64,000 bases of DNA from a virus. Made by a program: the position numbers and the translations under genes. Of this stretch, positions 2,102-52,800 are shown piece after piece. Numbering within the stretch: the stretch's first letter is position 1; every line of letters starts with the position of its first letter. The stretch covers positions 32,001-96,000 of IMG/VR virus record IMGVR_UViG_3300023184_004051; one strand, 5' to 3'. Below the pieces are notes generated by a model. That model was not told the origin of the DNA, ran no database searches, and worked only from the letters and a program-made list of their open reading frames with translations.

Positions 2102-3465
2102 ACCTCACCAAGTATTACGAATGGGGCTTTGACGAGCCGTTGTTCCCACGAGACGGCTCAATCACCAAGGGCGACCTTCCCGGACACGTATTCCACGGCA
2201 ATCAGTTCGTTGAGGTCGGTGGCGCTGGCACAACCACTTCAGCACGGAAGCCACGAGCCAAATCCCCCACCATCGCTGGTCTACCGAAGGGCTGGAAACT
2301 GAAGTCCAAGGATGGAAGCCGCATTGTCCTGACTTCCAAAAACGGCAACACGGCCATCTTTGCCACCCGCTCACGGGGTTGGAAGCCTGCTGAAAAGTAT
2401 TCGCAGATGGTTTTGGAAACTATCGAGAACCAAACCTCCGGCAAAACTGTCAACTTCGTTGCTGAAGCAAATGTCGGTAGAGATGCACTTGCTTATGTGA
2501 CAAGCGCAGACCCAAATATCGTAAATATGGGGCGCTACTCGGAGGTTGTCCAAACCCTTGACCATCAGCGTGAGCAGTTTGAGAAGCAAGTGACGAATAC
2601 AGCACTTGTTGGCGCAGACTTGTCGCTGGCGCTGATGGAAATGGCAAAGGGAACGCCTGAGCGTGAGGAACTTATCACCAAGATGGCGGAGTTGTATGAC
2701 CAACAGCCACGCACCGAAGCGATGACGAATAACCTCCACAACTCCTGCGCCTCCTTCGTTTCACCACAGAAAATCATTGAGACAATGGTGGCGCACGAAC
2801 TCGGCCACTCGGACTTCTTTTCCGAGGGTCACAAGATTAGTGAAATCTATCCCGCACTCACCGAAGCGGTGCAAGCGGCGGGGGTAGCAAATCGTTGGGC
2901 TATCTCTGGTAGTTATGCTCGTTTCACCGATGCAAGTGCGTGGGAGGCTAGCCAACGGGATGCTTACGCGGAAGTCCTCAGGGGAACACCAAGAAAATAC
3001 ACAGGCTTTGATGTGGGCAACGGGGTCGTTGTTAGCCGTGCTGATTACATTGACTACCGGATGAAGGAGGGGAGCGGAAGTTATCCTGTGAGCGTTTCCA
3101 CCCAAAAAGTATTGCGTGAGATTGGCGTGACGACTTACGGTTCCACCAAACTCCAAGAGGTTGTTGCCGAAGCACGAGCGATGTATTCCGTGCCACAACT
3201 TCCAAAATCAGCCCTGACGATGCGGATTGCCGGAATACTTGGTTGGGATAAGACAAACAAATCTGCTAAACTGTGGTTTATGAAGTCTGAGGATGACCTT
3301 CCACCTGTGAGCGCCAACGAATATTTGGACAAAGACGGCAACTTGATTGCTCGCGTCTTTGACAATGTTGATACCTCGGGCGTTGCCATCACCATCGTCG
3401 GGACAGTCGTGTTCCTGCCTGATGGCACGACGATGAGCCTTGCTGATTACAACGCAACTCACTAA
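2098..3465 (+). CDS. Zincin-like metallopeptidase-domain protein with N-terminal KGDLPGHVFHGNQF tag
   Basis: VAHELGHSDF (HExxH) with distal QEVVAEA. Tag at 2167-2208. ATGA overlap with the upstream ORF. Confidence 0.65.
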   Translation: MNLTKYYEWGFDEPLFPRDGSITKGDLPGHVFHGNQFVEVGGAGTTTSARKPRAKSPTIAGLPKGWKLKSKDGSRIVLTSKNGNTAIFATRSRGWKPAEKYSQMVLETIENQTSGKTVNFVAEANVGRDALAYVTSADPNIVNMGRYSEVVQTLDHQREQFEKQVTNTALVGADLSLALMEMAKGTPEREELITKMAELYDQQPRTEAMTNNLHNSCASFVSPQKIIETMVAHELGHSDFFSEGHKISEIYPALTEAVQAAGVANRWAISGSYARFTDASAWEASQRDAYAEVLRGTPRKYTGFDVGNGVVVSRADYIDYRMKEGSGSYPVSVSTQKVLREIGVTTYGSTKLQEVVAEARAMYSVPQLPKSALTMRIAGILGWDKTNKSAKLWFMKSEDDLPPVSANEYLDKDGNLIARVFDNVDTSGVAITIVGTVVFLPDGTTMSLADYNATH

Positions 3466-3680: not shown

Positions 3681-4295
3681 TTGTGTGTCCTATCCCTCGT
3701 CAAAGGCAGGCGCGTGGTAGTTGCGGTGCGAGGAATGGCTCTCGCACTCACAGTCTCGCTCTGCATTTTGCTATCGGGAGGAAGTCAGGTTTCACCACCC
3801 GCTTCCGCCACGCCCGAAAACTGCAATCACGGATGTAGTTGGACAATCAACGGTTTGACCTACAAGGTTCCAAACCGAACCTTCAACATCAGGCCGACGA
3901 CGACAACGACAACTCCCCCCATCACCACTACAACGGTTCCACCTGTCACGACAACGACAGTGAAACCGTATGTCGCCCCTCCGGTTGTTCCAAAAGTCAC
4001 TACAACGACTGTCGCCCCAAGCCCCATCAACGGTAATCCCTATGGGGTCACGGCTGCTGATGTGGCTGCGTGGACACGAGTTGCCATTTGTGAGGAAGGT
4101 GGCAACTGGCACATTCGTGGTGGAATGTACTCAGGCGGTCTTGGCATCAGCAACTACAACTGGTCGTATTACTCACGAGGTATGGGCGTTCCTGCCAACG
4201 CTGCTGATGCAACGCCAATCCAACAGATTGCGGTTGCTAAAAAAATCAACGCTGGGTATCAGGTTCCCGACCAATACGGGTGCGCCGCTTGGTGA
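3681..4295 (+). CDS. Secreted Rpf-like (resuscitation-promoting factor) lytic transglycosylase; true start probably 3714-3735
   Basis: Hydrophobic signal-like N-terminus, Thr/Pro linker, WTRVAICEEGGNW..YSGGLGI..W..ADATPIQQIAVA Rpf signature. Confidence 0.8.
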   Translation: MCVLSLVKGRRVVVAVRGMALALTVSLCILLSGGSQVSPPASATPENCNHGCSWTINGLTYKVPNRTFNIRPTTTTTTPPITTTTVPPVTTTTVKPYVAPPVVPKVTTTTVAPSPINGNPYGVTAADVAAWTRVAICEEGGNWHIRGGMYSGGLGISNYNWSYYSRGMGVPANAADATPIQQIAVAKKINAGYQVPDQYGCAAW

Positions 4296-4348: not shown

Positions 4349-6493
4349 GTGCTGAAACCGACAACGGATTTGACCGCCGTAAGCCTCTTTGCAGGGGTTG
4401 GCGGGTTTGACTTGGCATTAGAGCGACAAGGCGTAAAAGTCGTCGCTGCGGTGGAAATAGACAAGAACGCCAGAGGGGTTCTTGCACACCGTTTTCCAAA
4501 CAGCACGCTCTTTCCCGATGTCACGGAGGTCACAGGTGAGCAACTTATTTCAGCAGGATTTGTTCCCGAACGAGGCATCCTCACCGGAGGCTTCCCCTGC
4601 CAAGACCTCAGCGTTGCTGGAAAACGGGCCGGTTTGGCTGGCAAGCGTTCTGGCCTCTTTTGGGAAATCGCTCGCCTCATTGACGAACTCACGCCGCAAT
4701 ACTTCATCCTCGAAAATGTCCCCGGTCTTTTGTCATCTAACAGAGGACAAGACTTTGGAGCCGTTCTCGGGGCGCTGGTTGAGCGCGGGTACGGGGTCAC
4801 CTACCGAGTTTTGGATGCTCAATACTTTGGAGTCCCCCAACGCCGCCGTCGAGTGTTCATTGTCGGAAGTTTTGGAGATACCGGGGCCACAACTAGTGAA
4901 ATACTCGCTCTCTCCGAGGGCTTGTCAGGGTATCTTGAACAGAGCATCAAGAAGGAACAAGAAACTTCCACCACTCCTAAACGCCGCACTAGAAGCGGTG
5001 GCGCAGAAGGAAGCGTGACTTCACCACAAACGCTGGCATTTGACACGCAGTTTGGGTCTAACGCAAATGTGTTTGAGGACATTTCACCAACCCTGAAGGC
5101 TTCGCAGGCAGCGCCAAGTTTCACCGAAGTCGGTATGGAGCCGATTTTCTTTGACAGCGCCACTCACGGGGATGGCGCTCGTATTGCTGAAAAGACCATT
5201 CCAACTTTGACTTCCCGTATGGGAACGGGCGGGAATAACACCCCCCTTGTCGCCTACGCCGACCCAATCATCGGCATTGACCAAGAACTCAATGCCCGTG
5301 AGAACATCATTGGCTCGCTCGTCGCCGGTGCAAATAGCGGAACGCAAATACAGGCAGTTGCCTACTCGGTGCGTGAGGATGCACAGAGCAACACTTTCAG
5401 CGCAACCGAACTCTCGGCAGTCAACGCCTTGCAAGCCCACCAACCATCACCACAAAGTCATCACGCTCAAACCTTCATCGTGGAAGTCGAGCCGACGATT
5501 TTTCCAATCCAAGATGGTCGAGAGATGAACCACCAGCAGAACGGCATCGGCGTGGGTAGTGAAAACGACCCCGCCTACACCCTCCTTGCCACAGGCGGTC
5601 AAAGCATCGCAACAGTTTCGCCCGCAATCACCTCAACCGTTCGTCGCCTCACTCCAAAGGAGTGTGAGCGGCTTCAAGGATTTCCCACCGTAGAAAACAT
5701 TGGTATTATTGAGTGGTGTTCAGACCCTCTAAAGAACTATGTGGATGCGGAAAACCAAAATCCCAAGTCGCCATCACCTGCTTTGAGTGTCGCAAACGAA
5801 CAGCCGAGCGAGACTGCGAAATCTGCGGAAAACATTTCACCTACAAACGCTCATCAAACCGCCGAACCTGCTCTGGTCAATGTGGAAGTCAACTGCGAGG
5901 GCGAAATGCTGGAAATACACAGTCAAGGAAAGTTGATATTGTCTGTGAATACTGCGGAGAAGTCAAGCAGGTCAGCCCATCCTCTGCTAAACGCAGATTT
6001 TGTTCCACGGCTTGTGCTTACATTGCAAACTCTGGGTCTAATAACGCTCAATGGCAAGGTGGCATCACCAACGAGCGAGACAAGTTTGACAACAGTAAAG
6101 AGTGGCGTGCCGTTCGTAAGGCTGTCTGGCAACGAGATGACGCTACTTGCCAAAGATGTCGTATCCGATTTGACCATACAACACCCACCTACCACACCCA
6201 CCACATTGTTCCTTTCGGACACGAACCACTTAGAACAGAACTTACAAACCTTGTGTTGCTCTGTAATCCCTGCCATCATTGGGTTCACTCAAACGCCAAC
6301 CAACGGGGTGACTACTTACAGGTTCCACCTACGGGCGAAGCAACCGTGGACAGAGTTCCGCATTGACGAAAAGAAGGGTTTGATTTCACAAGCCGACGCT
6401 CCCCGCTACAAGCAAATGGGAAATGCCGTTGCTGTTCCCTGTGTCGAATGGATTGTGAAGCGGCTCGTTGAGATTGACAGGGCTACGAGGTGA
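4349..6493 (+). CDS. DNA (cytosine-5) methyltransferase with ~220-codon in-frame insertion between motifs IX and X
   Basis: SLFAGVGG, GGFPCQDLS, ENVPG, QRRRRVF, RRLTPKECERLQGFP ... YKQMGNAVAVP. Confidence 0.9.
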   Translation: MLKPTTDLTAVSLFAGVGGFDLALERQGVKVVAAVEIDKNARGVLAHRFPNSTLFPDVTEVTGEQLISAGFVPERGILTGGFPCQDLSVAGKRAGLAGKRSGLFWEIARLIDELTPQYFILENVPGLLSSNRGQDFGAVLGALVERGYGVTYRVLDAQYFGVPQRRRRVFIVGSFGDTGATTSEILALSEGLSGYLEQSIKKEQETSTTPKRRTRSGGAEGSVTSPQTLAFDTQFGSNANVFEDISPTLKASQAAPSFTEVGMEPIFFDSATHGDGARIAEKTIPTLTSRMGTGGNNTPLVAYADPIIGIDQELNARENIIGSLVAGANSGTQIQAVAYSVREDAQSNTFSATELSAVNALQAHQPSPQSHHAQTFIVEVEPTIFPIQDGREMNHQQNGIGVGSENDPAYTLLATGGQSIATVSPAITSTVRRLTPKECERLQGFPTVENIGIIEWCSDPLKNYVDAENQNPKSPSPALSVANEQPSETAKSAENISPTNAHQTAEPALVNVEVNCEGEMLEIHSQGKLILSVNTAEKSSRSAHPLLNADFVPRLVLTLQTLGLITLNGKVASPTSETSLTTVKSGVPFVRLSGNEMTLLAKDVVSDLTIQHPPTTPTTLFLSDTNHLEQNLQTLCCSVIPAIIGFTQTPTNGVTTYRFHLRAKQPWTEFRIDEKKGLISQADAPRYKQMGNAVAVPCVEWIVKRLVEIDRATR
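4482..5018 (+). CDS. Overprinted alternative-frame polypeptide inside the C5 MTase gene (M.EcoHK31I beta-subunit-like)
   Basis: 178-codon open frame fully nested in the MTase gene. C-terminus SLSEVLE..KYSLSPRACQGILNRASRRNKKLPPLL resembles the nested beta polypeptides of this MTase class (recalled, not searched). Confidence 0.65.
   Translation: MHTVFQTARSFPMSRRSQVSNLFQQDLFPNEASSPEASPAKTSALLENGPVWLASVLASFGKSLASLTNSRRNTSSSKMSPVFCHLTEDKTLEPFSGRWLSAGTGSPTEFWMLNTLESPNAAVECSLSEVLEIPGPQLVKYSLSPRACQGILNRASRRNKKLPPLLNAALEAVAQKEA
5713..6366 (+). CDS. HNH homing endonuclease with N-terminal zinc-finger repeats, nested in another frame of the MTase gene
   Basis: Multiple CxxC/CSxxC motifs, NNAQWQGG, WRAVRKAVWQRDDATCQRC..HHIVP..NLVLLCNPCHHWVH. 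Confidence 0.85.
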   Translation: MVFRPSKELCGCGKPKSQVAITCFECRKRTAERDCEICGKHFTYKRSSNRRTCSGQCGSQLRGRNAGNTQSRKVDIVCEYCGEVKQVSPSSAKRRFCSTACAYIANSGSNNAQWQGGITNERDKFDNSKEWRAVRKAVWQRDDATCQRCRIRFDHTTPTYHTHHIVPFGHEPLRTELTNLVLLCNPCHHWVHSNANQRGDYLQVPPTGEATVDRVPH

Positions 6494-7497
6494 AATCAAC
6501 CATCCTTCTAGGCGATGTTCGGAAGCGCCTTTTGGAAATCCCTGACGAGACAATCCAAACCGTAATCACCTCCCCGCCTTACTTTGGCTTACGGGACTAT
6601 GGGGTAGACGGTCAGATAGGTTTGGAAAAATCACCTGAGGACTTCGTGGATGCACTTGTTGAGTTGTTCCGTGAAGTCCGCCGTGTGCTGAAATCTGATG
6701 GAACAGTCTGGCTCAACTTGGGCGACAGTTATTGGGGCGGTAAGGGTCAGTCTGCGAATGGCGGTGCTGAACACCAAGCGGAGAGAGCGAAGCGTGGCGC
6801 AAGCCTCAACCAAGCGCATCAAACGCTCGGTGGTAAAAACCAAACCCGACCAACCGACGGGAAACACCACACCATCAAGCCCAAAGACCTCATCGGCATC
6901 CCGTGGCGTGTCGCTTTTGCCCTACAGGATGACGGCTGGTATTTGCGCTCAGACATCATTTGGTCAAAACCGAACCCAATGCCTGAAGCAATGAAAGACC
7001 GGCCTACAAAGGCTCACGAGTATCTGTTCTTGCTTTCCAAATCACCAAAGTATTACTACGACCACAATGCCATCAGAGAACCGCTTAGTGAGGCCACAAA
7101 AAAGCGTGACCTTGCCCCAAGGGGGCGCTCCCAAAATGGAGGCGGTAGTGAAAAGAGTATGGCTGGATATTCTTACACACCCGAACTTGGAAATATGACG
7201 AGCAACCCACTAGGGCGCAACCGCCGTTCGGTTTGGAGCATCAACACAAAACCATTCAAGGGCGCTCACTTTGCGGTAATGCCCGAAGCCCTTGTAGAGC
7301 CGTGTGTCCTTGCCGGTTCAGCACAGGGGGACACAGTTCTTGACCCCTTTATGGGAAGCGGAACGGTTGCTGTTGTGGCGAACCGTTTTGGAAGGAACTT
7401 CGTGGGAACCGAACTCAACCCTGCATATGCTGAAATCGCCAAGACGAGGATTGTGGATGCAGCCCCCTTACTCAATGAGGTGAACATCGTTGACTAA
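6490..7497 (+). CDS. DNA amino-methyltransferase (N4-C/N6-A, beta class)
   Basis: TSPPY, IIWSKPNPMPE, HFAVMP, VLDPFMGSGT. Confidence 0.9.
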   Translation: MKSTILLGDVRKRLLEIPDETIQTVITSPPYFGLRDYGVDGQIGLEKSPEDFVDALVELFREVRRVLKSDGTVWLNLGDSYWGGKGQSANGGAEHQAERAKRGASLNQAHQTLGGKNQTRPTDGKHHTIKPKDLIGIPWRVAFALQDDGWYLRSDIIWSKPNPMPEAMKDRPTKAHEYLFLLSKSPKYYYDHNAIREPLSEATKKRDLAPRGRSQNGGGSEKSMAGYSYTPELGNMTSNPLGRNRRSVWSINTKPFKGAHFAVMPEALVEPCVLAGSAQGDTVLDPFMGSGTVAVVANRFGRNFVGTELNPAYAEIAKTRIVDAAPLLNEVNIVD

Positions 7498-8593
7498 TGC
7501 CCGTATCCTCATTGGCGATGCCCGCAAGCGTCTTGCTGAAATCCCTGATGGCTCAGTTCGTTGCGCCGTGACTTCACCACCCTATTTTGGATTGCGTGAC
7601 TACGGGACTTCAGATTACGAAGGTGGCGACCCGAACTGCGAACACACGATTTCAGCGACAGATGCGGATGGGAAAGCGGTCTTTGCCGAGCGTGTGACCC
7701 GTGGTGATAGGTCTGCTTGCCTGAAGTGTGGGGCTACCCGTGTTGACAGCCAAATGGGTTTGGAACAAACTCCTGCCGCCTATGTTAGTGAAATGGTTGG
7801 CTTGTTCCGTGAGGTCAAGCGTGTTCTTGCTGATGACGGAACCCTGTGGCTCAACCTCGGAGACTCCTATGCGGGAGGTGGTGGTGGAAACTACAACAAG
7901 ACCGGCATCTCCCAAGCGGGCGGTCAGCACATCGCCAATGTCCGCAATCGCCCAGATTGGTTGCAAAACGCTGGTGTAAAGCCGAAGGACTTGATGGGTG
8001 TTCCTTGGCGAGTGGCTCTCGGATTACAGCAAGACGGTTGGTACCTCCGCAGCGACATCATTTGGCACAAGCCCAATCCGATGCCTGAGAGCGTCACCGA
8101 CAGGCCGACCAAAGCCCACGAGTATGTCTTTCTCCTTTCCAAATCACCTAAATACTTCTACGACTACGAAGCGGTCAAAGAGGATGGCGTGATGCCCGCC
8201 GGATACAAAGCGGCAAAGGGAAGTGCTGAAAGGTATGGGATGGAGGGCGTGAACGCTCGACCACCGGAATACAAGGTCTATGACGGGAAGCGGAACCGCA
8301 GGTCGGTTTGGACAATAAACACCAAGCCGTTCAAGGGAGCGCATTTTGCCGTGATGCCAGAGGCGTTGGTGGAACCGTGCGTCTTGGCAGGCTCGGAAAT
8401 CGGGGATACGGTGCTTGACCCTTTCACCGGAAGTGGGACTGTAGCCGTCGTAGCAATGCGTTTTGGAAGGCACTTCATCGGCACAGAACTGAACCCTGAG
8501 TATGGTGAAATCGCTCGCACACGGATTGAGGGCGACCAACCTCTAATGAACAATGTTGTTTTGGACTTCAGCACAAAGGCGACAAATGACTGA
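7490..8593 (+). CDS. Second DNA amino-methyltransferase (beta class), paralog of the upstream gene
   Basis: TSPPY, IIWHKPNPMPE, VLDPFTGSGT, extra C..CxxC insert after motif IV. Confidence 0.9.
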   Translation: MTNARILIGDARKRLAEIPDGSVRCAVTSPPYFGLRDYGTSDYEGGDPNCEHTISATDADGKAVFAERVTRGDRSACLKCGATRVDSQMGLEQTPAAYVSEMVGLFREVKRVLADDGTLWLNLGDSYAGGGGGNYNKTGISQAGGQHIANVRNRPDWLQNAGVKPKDLMGVPWRVALGLQQDGWYLRSDIIWHKPNPMPESVTDRPTKAHEYVFLLSKSPKYFYDYEAVKEDGVMPAGYKAAKGSAERYGMEGVNARPPEYKVYDGKRNRRSVWTINTKPFKGAHFAVMPEALVEPCVLAGSEIGDTVLDPFTGSGTVAVVAMRFGRHFIGTELNPEYGEIARTRIEGDQPLMNNVVLDFSTKATND

Positions 8594-29293: not shown

Positions 29294-32200
29294 TTGAGCG
29301 AGATGAAAACTTACTACGCCAATCCAAACTACGCCGAGGCTGGCAACTCCGATAACTGGGTAGTAGTAGGGGCGCAAAGTGCTGATGTTTCCGTCAATGA
29401 CTTGACACAGTTGGCCGTTGGCAACATTTCAGCACCAACAAGTGCCTCAACTACCGGGTATTACTTCGCCCAAGTAGAGGATTTGACCCGCCTGACAAAG
29501 GGATGGTCATACCTCACCAAGACCAATCTCGGCCCTCGCAACCAAGCGAATGACACCTTTCAAGGCAACCGCCCGCAAGCGCCTGTCTCGGAACCCTATG
29601 TCTATGTTGCTGAAATCAACGGCTTCCTCAATGGCGACACTCTGGCAGTTTTGGAAGGTCAGCAAGAGAACCAACCTCCATTTTCCAATGCCGCCACTTC
29701 ATCTGACTATGGGACAAGTCAGTGGTCAGTCGTTCGCAACGCCGGTCTTATCCCGCTCGTCAGCACCGACCCCGGAAACTCCACCACATCGTTCTTGCAA
29801 CCCGAGAACTCGTCATCCCTCGCTTCACGCCTCATCGCCTACAACAACATTGACTATGGCGACACGAACTACGGAAACACCTACACGGATGACGGTGGCA
29901 ACACTCTGCCTGTCCCTGCAACCAAGAACTACGGCTCAAAGTTCACCCCAACTCCCGACAACTTGGGAAATGGAACAACGCAGAACTGGTATCTCGTCGC
30001 TTCAGGTGATGACACGGCTCAGGCAAACCTTCTCACGATGCTGCCGGATTTCACTACCGATGGCGAGCAAGTTGTCAGCGTGCAGGTTGGGCAGACCGCA
30101 ACAACCGTCACTTTGAGTGCGGCAAACTCCGCTTTCACCGTCGGTCAGACCTTGACGATTGTGACGAACAGCACAGGGGTGAGCAGTTCGCTGCCTTACC
30201 TGTCTACAAGCGCCCCGATGGGTTGGTTTGCTGGAAAGATTACAAGCATTGCCGGTGCGACCCTCTACACCGACCTCAACGACACCACTTCCAATACCGG
30301 AACGCTTGACCCCCTGCCCGGAAGCCTCAATAATGCTTTGACATTCACCGGCACAGTTTTGGGAACGAACACGATTACGATTTCAGCAGTTGGCTCAACA
30401 TCCAACTATGGCATCGCCGCCGGTCACACCCTGACTCTGACCAACACGATTTCCACTATCAGTTCAACGGCCTCAACCTTCACGGTCACCACGAGCGCCA
30501 CGCACTACATCGTTGCAGGTCAACAGGTCACCATCGCTGGCGTGACAGGGGCTACTTACACTCCTTACAACGGGACTTGGACTGTCGCTACGGTTGGGGC
30601 AACCACTTTCACCGTGACAAGCACCATCAACCCCGGAACGGTTAGCCCTGCGAGTGCAACGGCTTCGCAACAGGCGTATGTCGGCTCAATCATCGGAAAC
30701 GGCGTGGGTGCTGTAATCACGCTAGATGCCTATGGTGGGCCAATGGGACTCAATACCGCCATCACAAACGGCTCTGGCATCTCGTTTTCAGCAAACTACC
30801 TTGACAACAATGTGCGAGCATACGCAGCGACAATCACCAACTACACGCTCCGTGTCAATGACGACGGCAACAAGTTGGACTGCCAATACTCAACTGCGCC
30901 TTATTACGCCCAAAACTGCAAACTCTCCCTCTCATCGGCACTTTCCACTACCGGCGCTACGACGCAGGTTGTTCTCCGCAACAACGATGTGTATGACTAC
31001 ACCATCTATGGGGCGACGAACGGTGGAGTAGTTGTTGCAGTCATCTCAGGCGACAACTACCAAGAAATCACCGTCACGAGCGACACAACCATCTTGGGTT
31101 TTGGAACAGCAACCGCCACGGCTACAAGTTTCACGCCAAACTTCGCTTACCCCGCTCGCATCACCTCGCTTTACGATGTCACTCAGACAAAAAGTGGTGA
31201 TAATGACCGATACGGCAAAGTTCTTGTCCTCCCTGTCATCCCGCAGATTTACCGCAACGCCCCAATAGCGCAGTTCAAGAGTATGACCGCTTTGAGTGGT
31301 GGAATAACCGAAACGATTTCCGGCTCTACCTATTACTACGGGACAGTTGGAAGCACTTACTTCTCGTCTGACCCCTACACGGTTTCAGTAGATGATGTTT
31401 CCAATATCAACGTTGGCGACACGCTTACTTTCCGCAACGACTACAACCCGTGGTTCAGCAACTACACGACCAAGCCTCCGACATCCTCTGAATGGTCAAC
31501 CTATGGCGACAATGTGCCTTGGAGTTGGACACTCACCGATAGCGGCGCTTCAGGTTTCACCTGCACGAGCGGGGCGACCTTCATCATCCTTCCTGATGCA
31601 AATGGCTACTCCCTCCCCCTAGTGAAAGGGCAAGCAGCGTTCGGTGCGCCAACCTATGTTCCAAATGGGGCAAAAGTCACGGGTTGGAACGCCACGCAGA
31701 TTTTCTTTGACCAAAACACCACAGCAACCGTCGCCACCCCTGCCCAAAACATCCGCTTCTACCCCGGAACTTCAGGCTTCAACTATTGGAAGGTTTACTC
31801 GGTCAACACGGCGGATAACACCTTCGTCATCTACGGTTCGTCGGGGGCATACGAGCAGATTTCAGCATCTTACGGAACCAACGGCGACAGTCAGAACTAC
31901 ATCTTTGACTACAGTAATCACCTCTACGCAGGGAATACTGTAGACATTTCCAGCACGATTGGCGTTGGAGCGGGCGTTGTCGGACTGTCAAGTGCGGTAA
32001 ATGTTGGGCCAGAAGTCAACCTTTCTTGGCACACAACCAACACGGTGATTGCCTCATACGCAGAGGGTGGGCGCTACATCGGTAGTGAAAGCCTTGGCGA
32101 CCAAGAAGTAGCAATCCCTTACCGCCTCGGTTCGCTGATTGGCTCAACCCTTGCAGTTGACATCATCGCTCAGACAAGCACCGCCATCGTGGTGAACGCA

Positions 32201-49848: not shown

Positions 49849-52800
49849 ATGGATTTTCCTACCTATGAAAACCCGACGGCTTACCACGCCCAAGCAGTTT
49901 TGGATAACACCGACCTCAAAGCGGTTTCGGTAGCCCCAAACTTCACGGGTGTCGCTTCCGGCTGTGCGGTTTCAGCAAATGCAACGATGGGTGTTGCCAT
50001 TGCTTCGGGAACCATCCTCATCAACGGTGCGCCCTACACGACTGTTGGTGGAACTTCTGCCGTTTCCTCCGCAAGTGTGGGTGACCGCCGTGACATCGTT
50101 TACGCAACTTGGTCTGGCTCGGCTGTAGTTTTCACCACCGCAGCCGGAACCCCTGCAACTGCCGGATGGACTTTTGGAACGCAGGGAACACCACCCATCA
50201 AGCCAACTCTGCCCGACAACGCAGTTTTGCTTGCGGAAGTGTATGTCGTTGGAACGGGGGCAACCCCAACAACTGTCATTACAAGTGCTGAAATCGTAGA
50301 CAAGCGATGCTTCGTCACGCAGTTCACCAACGATGTGACTGCCACGACGGGTGGCTCAATGACTCTAAAGGCCGTTGGAACCGCAGGAACTTACGGTGGT
50401 GGAAACGCCCTCCCATCCATCACGACGGATAGTGCGGGTCGGATTTCAGCAGCAAACAACATCGCCGCAATCCCCTCGACCTACACGGCTGGAACACCAA
50501 CTTACATTGGCTCTGCCACTACCCCTATTACGGGAGGAACCTTCACCTCAGGGTCGTGGACTTTCAATGCGTCTATTACTCCGACGGCGTGTTCATCAAC
50601 AGCAAACTTGATTACATTCTCTGTGAGCGCCACCACAGGTTTTGTCGTTGGGCAAATGATTACTGCCGCCGGTTTCGCTAACGCTGCCTACAACGGCGTG
50701 TTTTATGTTGGAGCAGTTTCAGCATCGGCAGTCACGGTTTATGCGGGAACTAACCCCGCTTCCATCCCATCAAACACCACAGGCAAGTTGTATCCGACGA
50801 TTGGAGTTGGCTCGCAAGTTGGCGTGGCGGCGGTCAACGGCTCTGCAACCATTCCTATCGGTGGTATCACCACAAACGGAACGACTTGGACAGTCACCAC
50901 TTCGGCTGCACACGGCTTTGTCAACGGTGCTTCGGTCACTATCGCTGGTGTCACACCCTCCGGCTACAACGGTTCATTCACGATTGCCTCTATTGGCTCA
51001 ACGACTTTCACTATCACGAACGCCACTCAGCCCGTTCCAGTCACGGTTGCAGGAACGGCAACGGCCACAATGGGGGCGATTTCTTTTGCCCCTGTTATTG
51101 CTTCATCTCTAGGCTCGTTCACAATCACCACTCAGCCAAACGGTATTACGCCTGTCAACTCGCCTGCGAGCGGAACCCTGACCTATCCTGTGCCGCTTTA
51201 CAGCGCCGCATCGCCCGCAGTTGGGTATTACCAAGCGTGGTCGGGAACTTCGCCTGTCCAAGTCCCAACATTTGGTGGTGGAAAGAACGCCCTCATCAAC
51301 TCGGCAATGGACATTTGGAACCGTGGAACTTCCATCGCCATCAACACGAGCATTGGTGCATCAGCATCGGCGTGGACAGCAGACCGTTGGTATGTGACCG
51401 CTCTCAACGGCAGCGTCACGGCTTCGCAAGACGGCACGGCAACGATGCCGAACAACGCTCCTTACGGCCATCGCATCACCACTGGCTCGGCAGGAAACGC
51501 TGGCTACATTATGCAACAGGCTTTAGATAGCGTCACCTCAAAGGCACTCGCTGGTCAGAACTTGACTGTTTCGTTCAACGCTCGCTTCAATGCCAACAAC
51601 AATAGAACTGCCGTATCTATTTTCACCTCTAGCATCTCCAACTCCATCACGGGCAACACTTGGAACCACCTGTCAACCGCTAGCGCAAATACGCCAACGA
51701 CCTATGCCACGACCCTTCCCCTACAAGCAGTTAGTGGCATTATCCCAACCGGAACACTTGGCGTGATGGTGCAGATTACGCCGGTTGCTGCAATCAACAG
51801 CATTGCAAACTCTGGCACAACGCCCAATATTGTTTGGACAGTTACAACCGGAACGGTTCACGGTCTTACCACAGGCGATACGGTTGTCATTTTTGCGGCT
51901 AACGCTTCATACAACGGAACTTGGACAGTCGCTTCAGTCCCATCAGGAACAACTTTCACCATCGGTAGCCAGACCACAAACCCCGGAACAGCAACCGGAT
52001 ACGCAACTGCCGCCTTTTCTCCGGTTATGTCGGTTTCGGCTTTCCAAATCACAAGTGCCACCGTTTTCACCTACACGGCTGCGCTGCCTGCCGCTTCAGG
52101 TGGCAGTTCGCCCTCTACTTATTTTCAGCCCGGTCAAACAGTCACGATTGCGGGTCTTACAGGTGGAGCCGCAGTAGGCAATGGAACTTTTGTCCTTGCT
52201 TCAGCCAGCGCCTCAGGCTTTACGGTCACCACTTCTGGTCAGACCGCAGGCTCTTTGATTTCTGGTCAGGCAGGAACGGCTACAGCCGTTACCACGCACG
52301 ATGTCACCAAAGTGCAGTTGGAGTTTATGGGCGGCAACAACATTTACTCCATTTACAACCGGCACGGTGGGGCAAATGAAACTGCTGAAATCATTACAAA
52401 TGGGCCTGCCGGAACCAATGGCGTTCTTGTCACGACGGGCGCTCTTGACTCAGGAACGGGTCAAGGAACACCATCTTGGCTCACAGTCGGTGCAACCAAC
52501 ACGGCTTTGATGTCTAGTGGAACCCAATCCGTCTTTGCCTACAGGCAGACACAGGCTCTCGCCTACACAACAAGCGGTGGAGTTATTGGAACCAATGTTG
52601 GTGAAACTATCCCTGTCTGGGGGGCAAATGCCGTCTACACAACCGTCGCTTCCAATATGCGTCTTACCGCCGTTTACCTCACCGCGGGGCAACAGGTCAC
52701 CAACTTGACTTTCTTTGGCATCGGGGCGGGGTCGGGTCTTAGTACCGCTTGGGGTGGGCTTTTCACCCTTGCATCAGGTTCAGGCTCTAGCGGGGTGACA

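Follow-up and report, generated by a model that had tools for sequence, protein, structure and literature searches.

A probable homing-type HNH endonuclease gene overprinted in phase within a viral C5 cytosine methyltransferase gene, with stop codons avoided in the host frame

The DNA considered here, hereafter the window, comprises 64,000 nucleotides (nt) and corresponds to bases 32001-96000 of the 108,670-nt IMG/VR virus record IMGVR_UViG_3300023184_004051, from lake water. It carries a gene for a C5 cytosine DNA methyltransferase of 714 amino acids (4349..6493, plus strand; Pfam PF00145, E 1.2e-63) that contains, between the catalytic motifs IX and X, an insert of 660 nt, i.e. 220 codons without a stop in the frame of the methyltransferase (5687..6346, plus strand). 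A gene for an HNH endonuclease (5716..6366 or 5713..6366, plus strand) is read through the same DNA in the +2 frame of its host gene. The sequence comparisons described below make it probable that the insert is a mobile cassette, formed by a free-standing HNH homing-endonuclease gene overprinted in phase in the methyltransferase, whose own frame would simply be read through. Judged by its sequence, the arrangement is of the same kind as the hidden HNH of the ShiLan domain, published in 2025, although it is found here in another class of methyltransferase and with an HNH of another clade.

The original prediction, made from the letters alone, placed the end of motif IX at 5686 and the resumption of the methyltransferase, with the residues WT, at 6347, leaving about 220 intervening codons free of stops in the host frame. 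These coordinates were confirmed, and the alignment with insertion-free homologues that it had called for located both junctions with single-base precision. Motif IX (RRLTPKECERLQGFP; 5642..5686, plus strand) borders the insertion site on its 5' side, and on the other side the C-terminal region resumes as WTEF..RYKQMGNAV, which includes motif X (6347..6493, plus strand, with GNAV at 6419-6430). In two syntenic viral contigs that lack the insert (L109 and L110), the blastn match to the window breaks at 5683 and resumes exactly at 6347; the flanks show 86-88% nucleotide identity, and the similarity continues into the same downstream methyltransferase gene. Likewise, close protein homologues without the insert (P0002-P0007) show RLQGF[PD]D[GN]WT uninterrupted, and from both observations it follows that the insert spans 5687-6346. 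The insert takes the place of two codons (DG or DN) of the empty site, which reads GFxD-G/N-WT. The third frame of this segment contains 15 stops, versus none in the host frame. The presence of the insert varies between syntenic relatives, and its 3' junction is spanned, with zero or few differences, by contigs of independent freshwater metagenome runs (X2 and X3), which indicates that the arrangement is real DNA and not an assembly artefact.

The product of the nested gene was recognised by the Pfam HNH model (E 1.2e-7, residues 146-192) and by several PHROG HNH families (best E 3e-19). An alignment of 54 sequences shows invariant cysteine pairs and the pattern HH..N..C..CH..H, and the AlphaFold model, built with family alignments, reached a predicted local distance difference test (pLDDT) score of 89.7; hence the complete zinc-finger HNH protein that had been proposed for 5713-6366 stands. 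Translation could start at GTG 5716 or at GTG 5713, with an in-frame TGA at 5710-5712; the former is favoured because the relatives begin with MFRPSKE. As had also been noticed beforehand, the stop codon (TGA, 6364-6366) lies inside the resumed methyltransferase sequence, 20 nt in. The C-terminal tail of 12-14 residues (..PPTGEATVDRVPH; 6328-6366) that precedes it is absent from the relatives and shows a pLDDT below 50; it seems, from this comparison, that the usual stop of the family, located inside the insert, was lost in this copy. The gene is present in one copy in the 108,670-nt record. A Foldseek search of the protein against the PDB gave nothing at E<=0.001, and similarity to the homing enzymes of the I-HmuI type was not found; the top rows, with E values around 0.01, were the HNH cores of 5h0m, Cap5 and McrA.

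Only two relatives of this HNH protein are called among 5.8 billion proteins, probably because gene callers do not call nested open reading frames (ORFs). Six-frame scans with the HNH alignment, which are blind to the host frame, recovered approximately 90 loci from IMG/VR, from JGI metagenomes and from one Actinomycetota metagenome-assembled genome. The frame +1 to the HNH was open across the entire HNH ORF and into a C5 methyltransferase, at the same site, in 88 of 89 rows. In nearly all of these loci the HNH start follows RRLTPxECERLQGFP (motif IX) at a distance of 25-45 nt, and G[WYH]T..RYKxxGN resumes a few codons past the HNH stop. After copies with more than 95% nucleotide identity were dropped, 54 non-redundant elements remained, with 25-58% GC; every one of them has a length that is a multiple of three (54/54) and a host frame without a single stop (54/54), whereas the third frame contains from 8 to 39. 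The presence of host-frame stops in homologous inserts would have spoken against the original prediction, which had read the stop-free second frame as a sign of selection; both the 15 stops of the third frame and the absence of host-frame stops among the relatives bear this out. When the synonymous codons of the HNH were permuted, a mean of 2.6 host-frame stops appeared, and zero stops were obtained in about 5% of the trials per locus, although these per-locus probabilities are not independent, given that the copies are related by descent. In two loci (L017 and L068) stops have accumulated in the HNH frame and none in the host frame; an open host frame next to a decayed HNH points to selection on openness itself, independent of the nuclease. 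Two further copies depart from the pattern: in L074 a one-base frame change (~2865-2872) shifts the HNH so that its C-terminal half is read in the host frame, with motif X cut off, and L070 has one stop in each frame (353 and 499). These are either decaying copies or sequencing errors.

The peptide encoded by the insert in the host frame behaves as sequence that is not conserved for its own sake, as the original prediction had it. In a codon alignment of the 54 elements, the mean pairwise amino acid identity is 0.533 for the HNH frame, and 0.340 for the host frame as compared with 0.332 for the closed third frame; moreover, the least conserved codon position of the HNH is the third, which is the second position of the host codons (0.50 versus 0.64 and 0.69). 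It follows that the motifs shared in the host frame are shadows of the conservation of the HNH. This is exemplified by a recurrent cysteine near the N-terminal end of the insert, whose codon arises from the TG in the ATG of the HNH and the T next to it. The 220-codon peptide has no match to a Pfam or PHROG family, and no relative of it was detected in a scan of viral contigs, which fits an unconstrained peptide. The pLDDT values of residues 447-666, i.e. the insert, are mostly 30-64 in the AlphaFold model, but this is weak evidence because the target-recognition region of the host also scores low. The simplest reading is that the host-frame peptide is a passive translated linker and not a domain, an intein or an intron, and on the sequence comparisons the loop between motifs IX and X of the C5 methyltransferase appears to tolerate some 220 arbitrary residues.

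The remainder of the methyltransferase has the features of an intact enzyme. The catalytic motifs PC, ENV, QxRxR, IX and X are conserved across an alignment of 50 insert-bearing and insert-free relatives, and the insert-bearing hosts retain motif X in the host frame, with G691 and N692 invariant and R686 and Y687 above 90%. In the AlphaFold model, also built with family alignments, residues 1-190 and motifs I-VIII have a pLDDT higher than 90, motifs IX and X reach 84-96, and the resumed C-terminus (residues 667-714) scores 89-96.

From these data, a mechanism can be proposed in which the cassette would have been inserted in phase between motifs IX and X, separating the D and G codons of the conserved GFPD-GWT stretch, and would not be spliced out at either the RNA or the protein level. 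Ribosomes would translate the whole of it in the host frame, adding before motif X an unconstrained and probably floppy surface linker of about 220 residues; because they would read straight through, selection would forbid only stop codons in that frame. The endonuclease would be made separately from the +2 frame of the host, which is consistent with its own conserved start codon, with the in-frame stops just upstream, and with the purifying selection on the HNH protein revealed by the comparison of the copies. Once made, it would cut insert-free methyltransferase alleles at the sequence encoding motifs IX and X, and the cassette would be copied in by repair. The evidence for this homing function is indirect, and consists of the presence or absence of the insert in syntenic relatives, its location at the same site in very different methyltransferases, and the existence of decayed copies. 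With respect to the second of these points, members of the HNH clade that are 40-59% identical are hosted by methyltransferases with unalignable target-recognition regions (alignment A5, 1865 columns, mean identity 15%), and the mean identity of the HNH, 0.63, is higher than that of the host catalytic core, 0.50, for the 14 loci that were caught by the motif pattern, which suggests horizontal movement.

Regarding the expression of the nuclease, the HNH frame contains a stop within 10 codons upstream of the conserved ATG or GTG in 41 of 52 loci, and the start codon is ATG in 49 of the 52 and GTG in the others. These upstream stops, together with the conserved start, make a methyltransferase-HNH fusion produced by frameshifting unlikely. 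A Shine-Dalgarno core of four bases at positions -18 to -7 was present in only 9 of 52 loci. In the window, a promoter scan flagged TTCCCA-16-TATTAT with a TG extension, ending at 5709; the extended -10-like box TGgTATTAT (5701..5709, plus strand), a candidate promoter, is located 6 nt upstream of GTG 5716. A TATAAT hexamer at -12 to -7 from the HNH start is matched at 6/6 positions in 14 loci and at 5/6 or more in 34 of 52, against a background of 3.9% of equivalent segments elsewhere in the same loci (positions scored, -14 to -6), statistics that are inflated by the relatedness of the copies; the TGn extension was found in 16 loci. In addition, the isoleucine codon of the host at -11 to -9 is ATA in 23 of 27 cases, versus 31% of the isoleucine codons elsewhere in the hosts, and this bias indicates a constraint on the nucleotides and not on the peptide. 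Since the spacing between the box and the start codon is that between a -10 box and a transcription start, a leaderless HNH messenger RNA (mRNA) is possible, and the HNH may be expressed from its own -10 box as a transcript beginning at the start codon. We consider the chances about even that the cassette is such a self-contained expression unit, in which a leaderless nuclease mRNA would not compete with the ribosomes on the methyltransferase frame. The alternative to a -10 box would be an A/U-rich translation signal.

Other explanations have to be weighed against a cassette that is read through. One of them is self-splicing of the mRNA, in which case the HNH ORF would be part of an unrecognised intron, either group I-like or of another type. 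The insertion site, in a conserved coding stretch, is typical of intron homing, and phage group I introns often contain HNH ORFs, as in the case of I-HmuI. However, the intron scan proposed with the original prediction, carried out with Rfam at E<=10 over 5000-7000, retrieved neither an intron nor any other model, and no intron model reached the gathering score in 20 related loci. The non-ORF flanks of the HNH, 26-45 nt upstream and no more than about 25 nt downstream, leave too little room for a group I core, as had been anticipated, and the core of any ribozyme would need to lie within the ORF; furthermore, an intron gives no reason for the multiple-of-three lengths or for an exon frame open in 54 of 54 elements. 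We therefore regard an intron as very unlikely. An atypical intein, translated in the host frame and then self-excising, would account for a stop-free in-frame insertion in a conserved motif, and the cysteine near the N-terminal end of the insert would be in its favour had it not been explained as a by-product of the HNH start codon. Against it, conservation in the host frame at the level of a non-coding frame means that no Hint blocks are maintained, and neither the lack of a Pfam match nor the low pLDDT of the insert helps this view. The first residue of the insert is V, I, T or D and not C or S, there is no terminal His-Asn, and the +1 residue is G or W and not C, S or T; the statement of the original prediction that intein termini are lacking thus holds, and an intein is scarcely credible. 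Ribosomal bypass was rejected because the host frame contains no stop that would have to be skipped, and because a hop of 660 nt would greatly exceed those known to us. The original prediction had proposed a homing-type element that spares its host by overprinting, either as a tolerated loop, by bypass or by unusual splicing; the open frame and the unconstrained peptide agree with the tolerated loop, and the last two are disfavoured because either of them would remove the need for an open frame.

Two further proposals concern the function of the pair. The nested gene and its host could form a compact restriction-modification module, with the HNH as the restriction enzyme of the cognate methyltransferase, or else the phage could have recruited the HNH to some other function. 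There are restriction enzymes of the small zinc HNH type, and nesting would link restriction and modification absolutely; nevertheless, a single HNH clade resides in methyltransferases whose recognition regions cannot be aligned, average conservation is higher for the HNH than for the host core in the 14 loci compared, close syntenic relatives do without the HNH, and decayed copies persist in intact hosts, all of which make this proposal most improbable. It could also be argued that the methyltransferase is split or dead, with motif X supplied in trans by re-initiation, or that the frame is kept open only because this maintains translational coupling to the methyltransferase genes that follow or spares them polarity. 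C5 methyltransferases in split or permuted form are known, and the stop codon of the host gene overlaps the GTG start (6490) of the next methyltransferase gene (GTGA, 6490-6493). Yet all the insert-bearing hosts encode motif X in the host frame, with hardly any variation, the upstream catalytic motifs are also retained, and re-initiation does not need 220 open codons, so that this proposal appears very unlikely as well. Several points nonetheless count against the reading favoured here, i.e. an overprinted cassette with host-frame read-through. The open host frame could be selected for translational coupling with the downstream gene and not for methyltransferase function; the shared descent of the copies and the limited value of the pLDDT of the insert, both mentioned above, reduce the weight of those data; the extension of the HNH 20 nt into the host sequence may mean that the copy in the window is past its active phase; and no contig that joins across the insert, skipping it, was present among the DNA contigs of four runs, where the three joints listed are in the N-terminal or variable part of the gene and come from diverged relatives.

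The closest published counterpart is the ShiLan domain, an out-of-frame HNH hidden in mycobacteriophage DNA methylases (Arsenault, Gosselin and Gogarten, 2025, PMC11855218) that had been described earlier by Gosselin et al. 2023 (PMC9957025); for one of these proteins, Violet gp57, the RefSeq note reads 'HNH endonuclease domain out of frame'. The 2025 report covered about 10 phages, predicted the host-frame product as a poorly structured loop and found no intron or intein signatures; its authors speculated on leaderless translation of the hidden HNH, selection was not tested and a promoter was not mentioned (PMC11855218). The two systems share a stop-free in-phase insertion of around 200 codons in a phage DNA methylase, with a zinc-finger HNH in another frame, and in both some close relatives have the insert and others lack it. 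The features that define the hidden out-of-frame HNH insertions (PMC11855218), i.e. insert-free relatives, an open frame, a zinc-finger HNH and no intron or intein machinery, are all found in the family described here. The ShiLan domain proper was discarded as its identity: the host protein there, Violet gp57, is an N6/N4 amino-methyltransferase (PF01555) and here it is a C5 enzyme (PF00145), and the HNH of Violet is only 27% identical to that of the window over 135 residues. In addition, the nested ORF of Violet is in the +1 frame of the host with a Shine-Dalgarno-like GAGGAA, whereas here it is in the +2 frame and a Shine-Dalgarno sequence is mostly absent, and the present family avoids stops in 54 non-redundant copies with no constraint on the peptide. 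An AT-rich stretch with TATCTATAAG, ACTATAAAA and the GAGGAA sequence was noticed in Violet gp57 (L107, 1795-1838), just upstream of the ATG of the hidden HNH, in an otherwise GC-rich mycobacteriophage; cassettes of the ShiLan type, too, may come with expression signals of their own. Pacc40 gp60 was reported to have a stop-free phage methylase insertion with another hidden ORF, unrelated to the first (PMC11855218, section 3.6); this case differs in that the host is a helicase-methylase fusion, the position is another one, the ORF has 160 amino acids and its assignment as HNH was called less certain by the authors.

More distant comparisons can be made with other mobile elements. The I-HmuI-type intron HNHs and the HNH-bearing inteins are alike in having an HNH/His-Me finger nuclease, DNA-binding zinc modules and a conserved coding target, but here there is neither a ribozyme match nor a Hint domain. 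Free-standing homing endonuclease genes are known to split host genes, as in the case of nrdA/mobE of the Aeromonas phage Aeh1. There, as here, an endonuclease gene without intron or intein is located inside a conserved phage gene; the difference is that in Aeh1 two host polypeptides reassemble, and here one continuous ORF would be kept by overprinting. The gene 60/mobA cassette of phage T4, reportedly described by Bonocora et al. in 2011, is said to combine a homing endonuclease with a translational bypass of 50 nt. It resembles the present case in that a coding gene houses a free-standing homing endonuclease together with a means of preserving host function that involves splicing of neither RNA nor protein; however, in T4 the host gene is split and the ribosome hops over a stop-containing segment of 50 nt, whereas here 660 nt would be translated and nothing skipped.

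In regard to the surroundings of the insert, the region of the host gene between motifs VIII and IX (4920-5640, residues ~190-430) differs by whole blocks among P0002-P0007, L109 and L110; L110 carries approximately 240 extra nt between window positions 5014 and 5019, and short blocks recur in this variable region (PTLTSRMGTGGNN.. and QDGREM..QNG.GVG.ENDPAYTL). This modular organisation suggests a multispecific C5 methyltransferase with shuffled target-recognition modules. Directly downstream are two DNA methyltransferase genes of the N6/N4 type (PF01555; 6490-7497, E 8e-55, and 7490-8593, E 1e-48), neither of which contains an insert, and overlapping stop and start codons chain both of them to the C5 gene, giving three methyltransferases in a row. 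The product of the upstream gene (3681-4295) looks secreted and combines a T/P-rich linker with a transglycosylase-like domain of the Rpf type (PF06737, E 5e-10), a hint that the host is an actinobacterium. Two transfer RNA genes (3238-3383) are located immediately 3' of the insert-bearing methyltransferase in L005, a related viral contig. Other same-strand nested ORFs of at least 120 codons were listed in the window; two of them, 50886-51527 and 29496-30113, have no Pfam family and were taken as chance. No relative of this HNH clade above ~35% identity was found in cultured-phage records. The best cultured-phage match, with 29% identity, is in the Bacillus phage vB_BanS_Sophrita (OK499991.1, 162609-163181), under a coding sequence labelled 'histone-lysine N-methyltransferase' in GenBank and 'HNH endonuclease' in RefSeq; this locus may be another nested or mis-annotated case.

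To our knowledge, homing endonuclease genes have been thought to persist inside genes only by means of self-splicing introns, inteins or the splitting of the host gene. The many copies found here show a cheaper solution, in which the cassette is inserted in phase at a permissive surface loop, the nuclease is encoded in another frame and selection purges the stops of the host frame; overprinting would thus have arisen from insertion and not from de novo gene birth. Such nucleases are missed by gene callers, with two called relatives versus about 90 loci from the six-frame search, and it would be worthwhile to check the other frames of methyltransferases that have an unexplained 'domain' of about 200 residues between motifs IX and X. 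The tolerant loop between these motifs could also be useful for the engineering of C5 methyltransferases. What is added to the published kind is its breadth, as a large metagenomic clade, the quantification of an avoidance of stops and nothing else, and a promoter lead, of which the TATAAT-like -10 box in most copies may be a new addition. If true, the leaderless promoter reading would answer the question left by PMC11855218 of how hidden HNHs are translated and, likewise if true, the overprinted cassette would give homing endonucleases a third general option, alongside introns and inteins, for residing in coding sequences for essential motifs, in phages of 25-58% GC.

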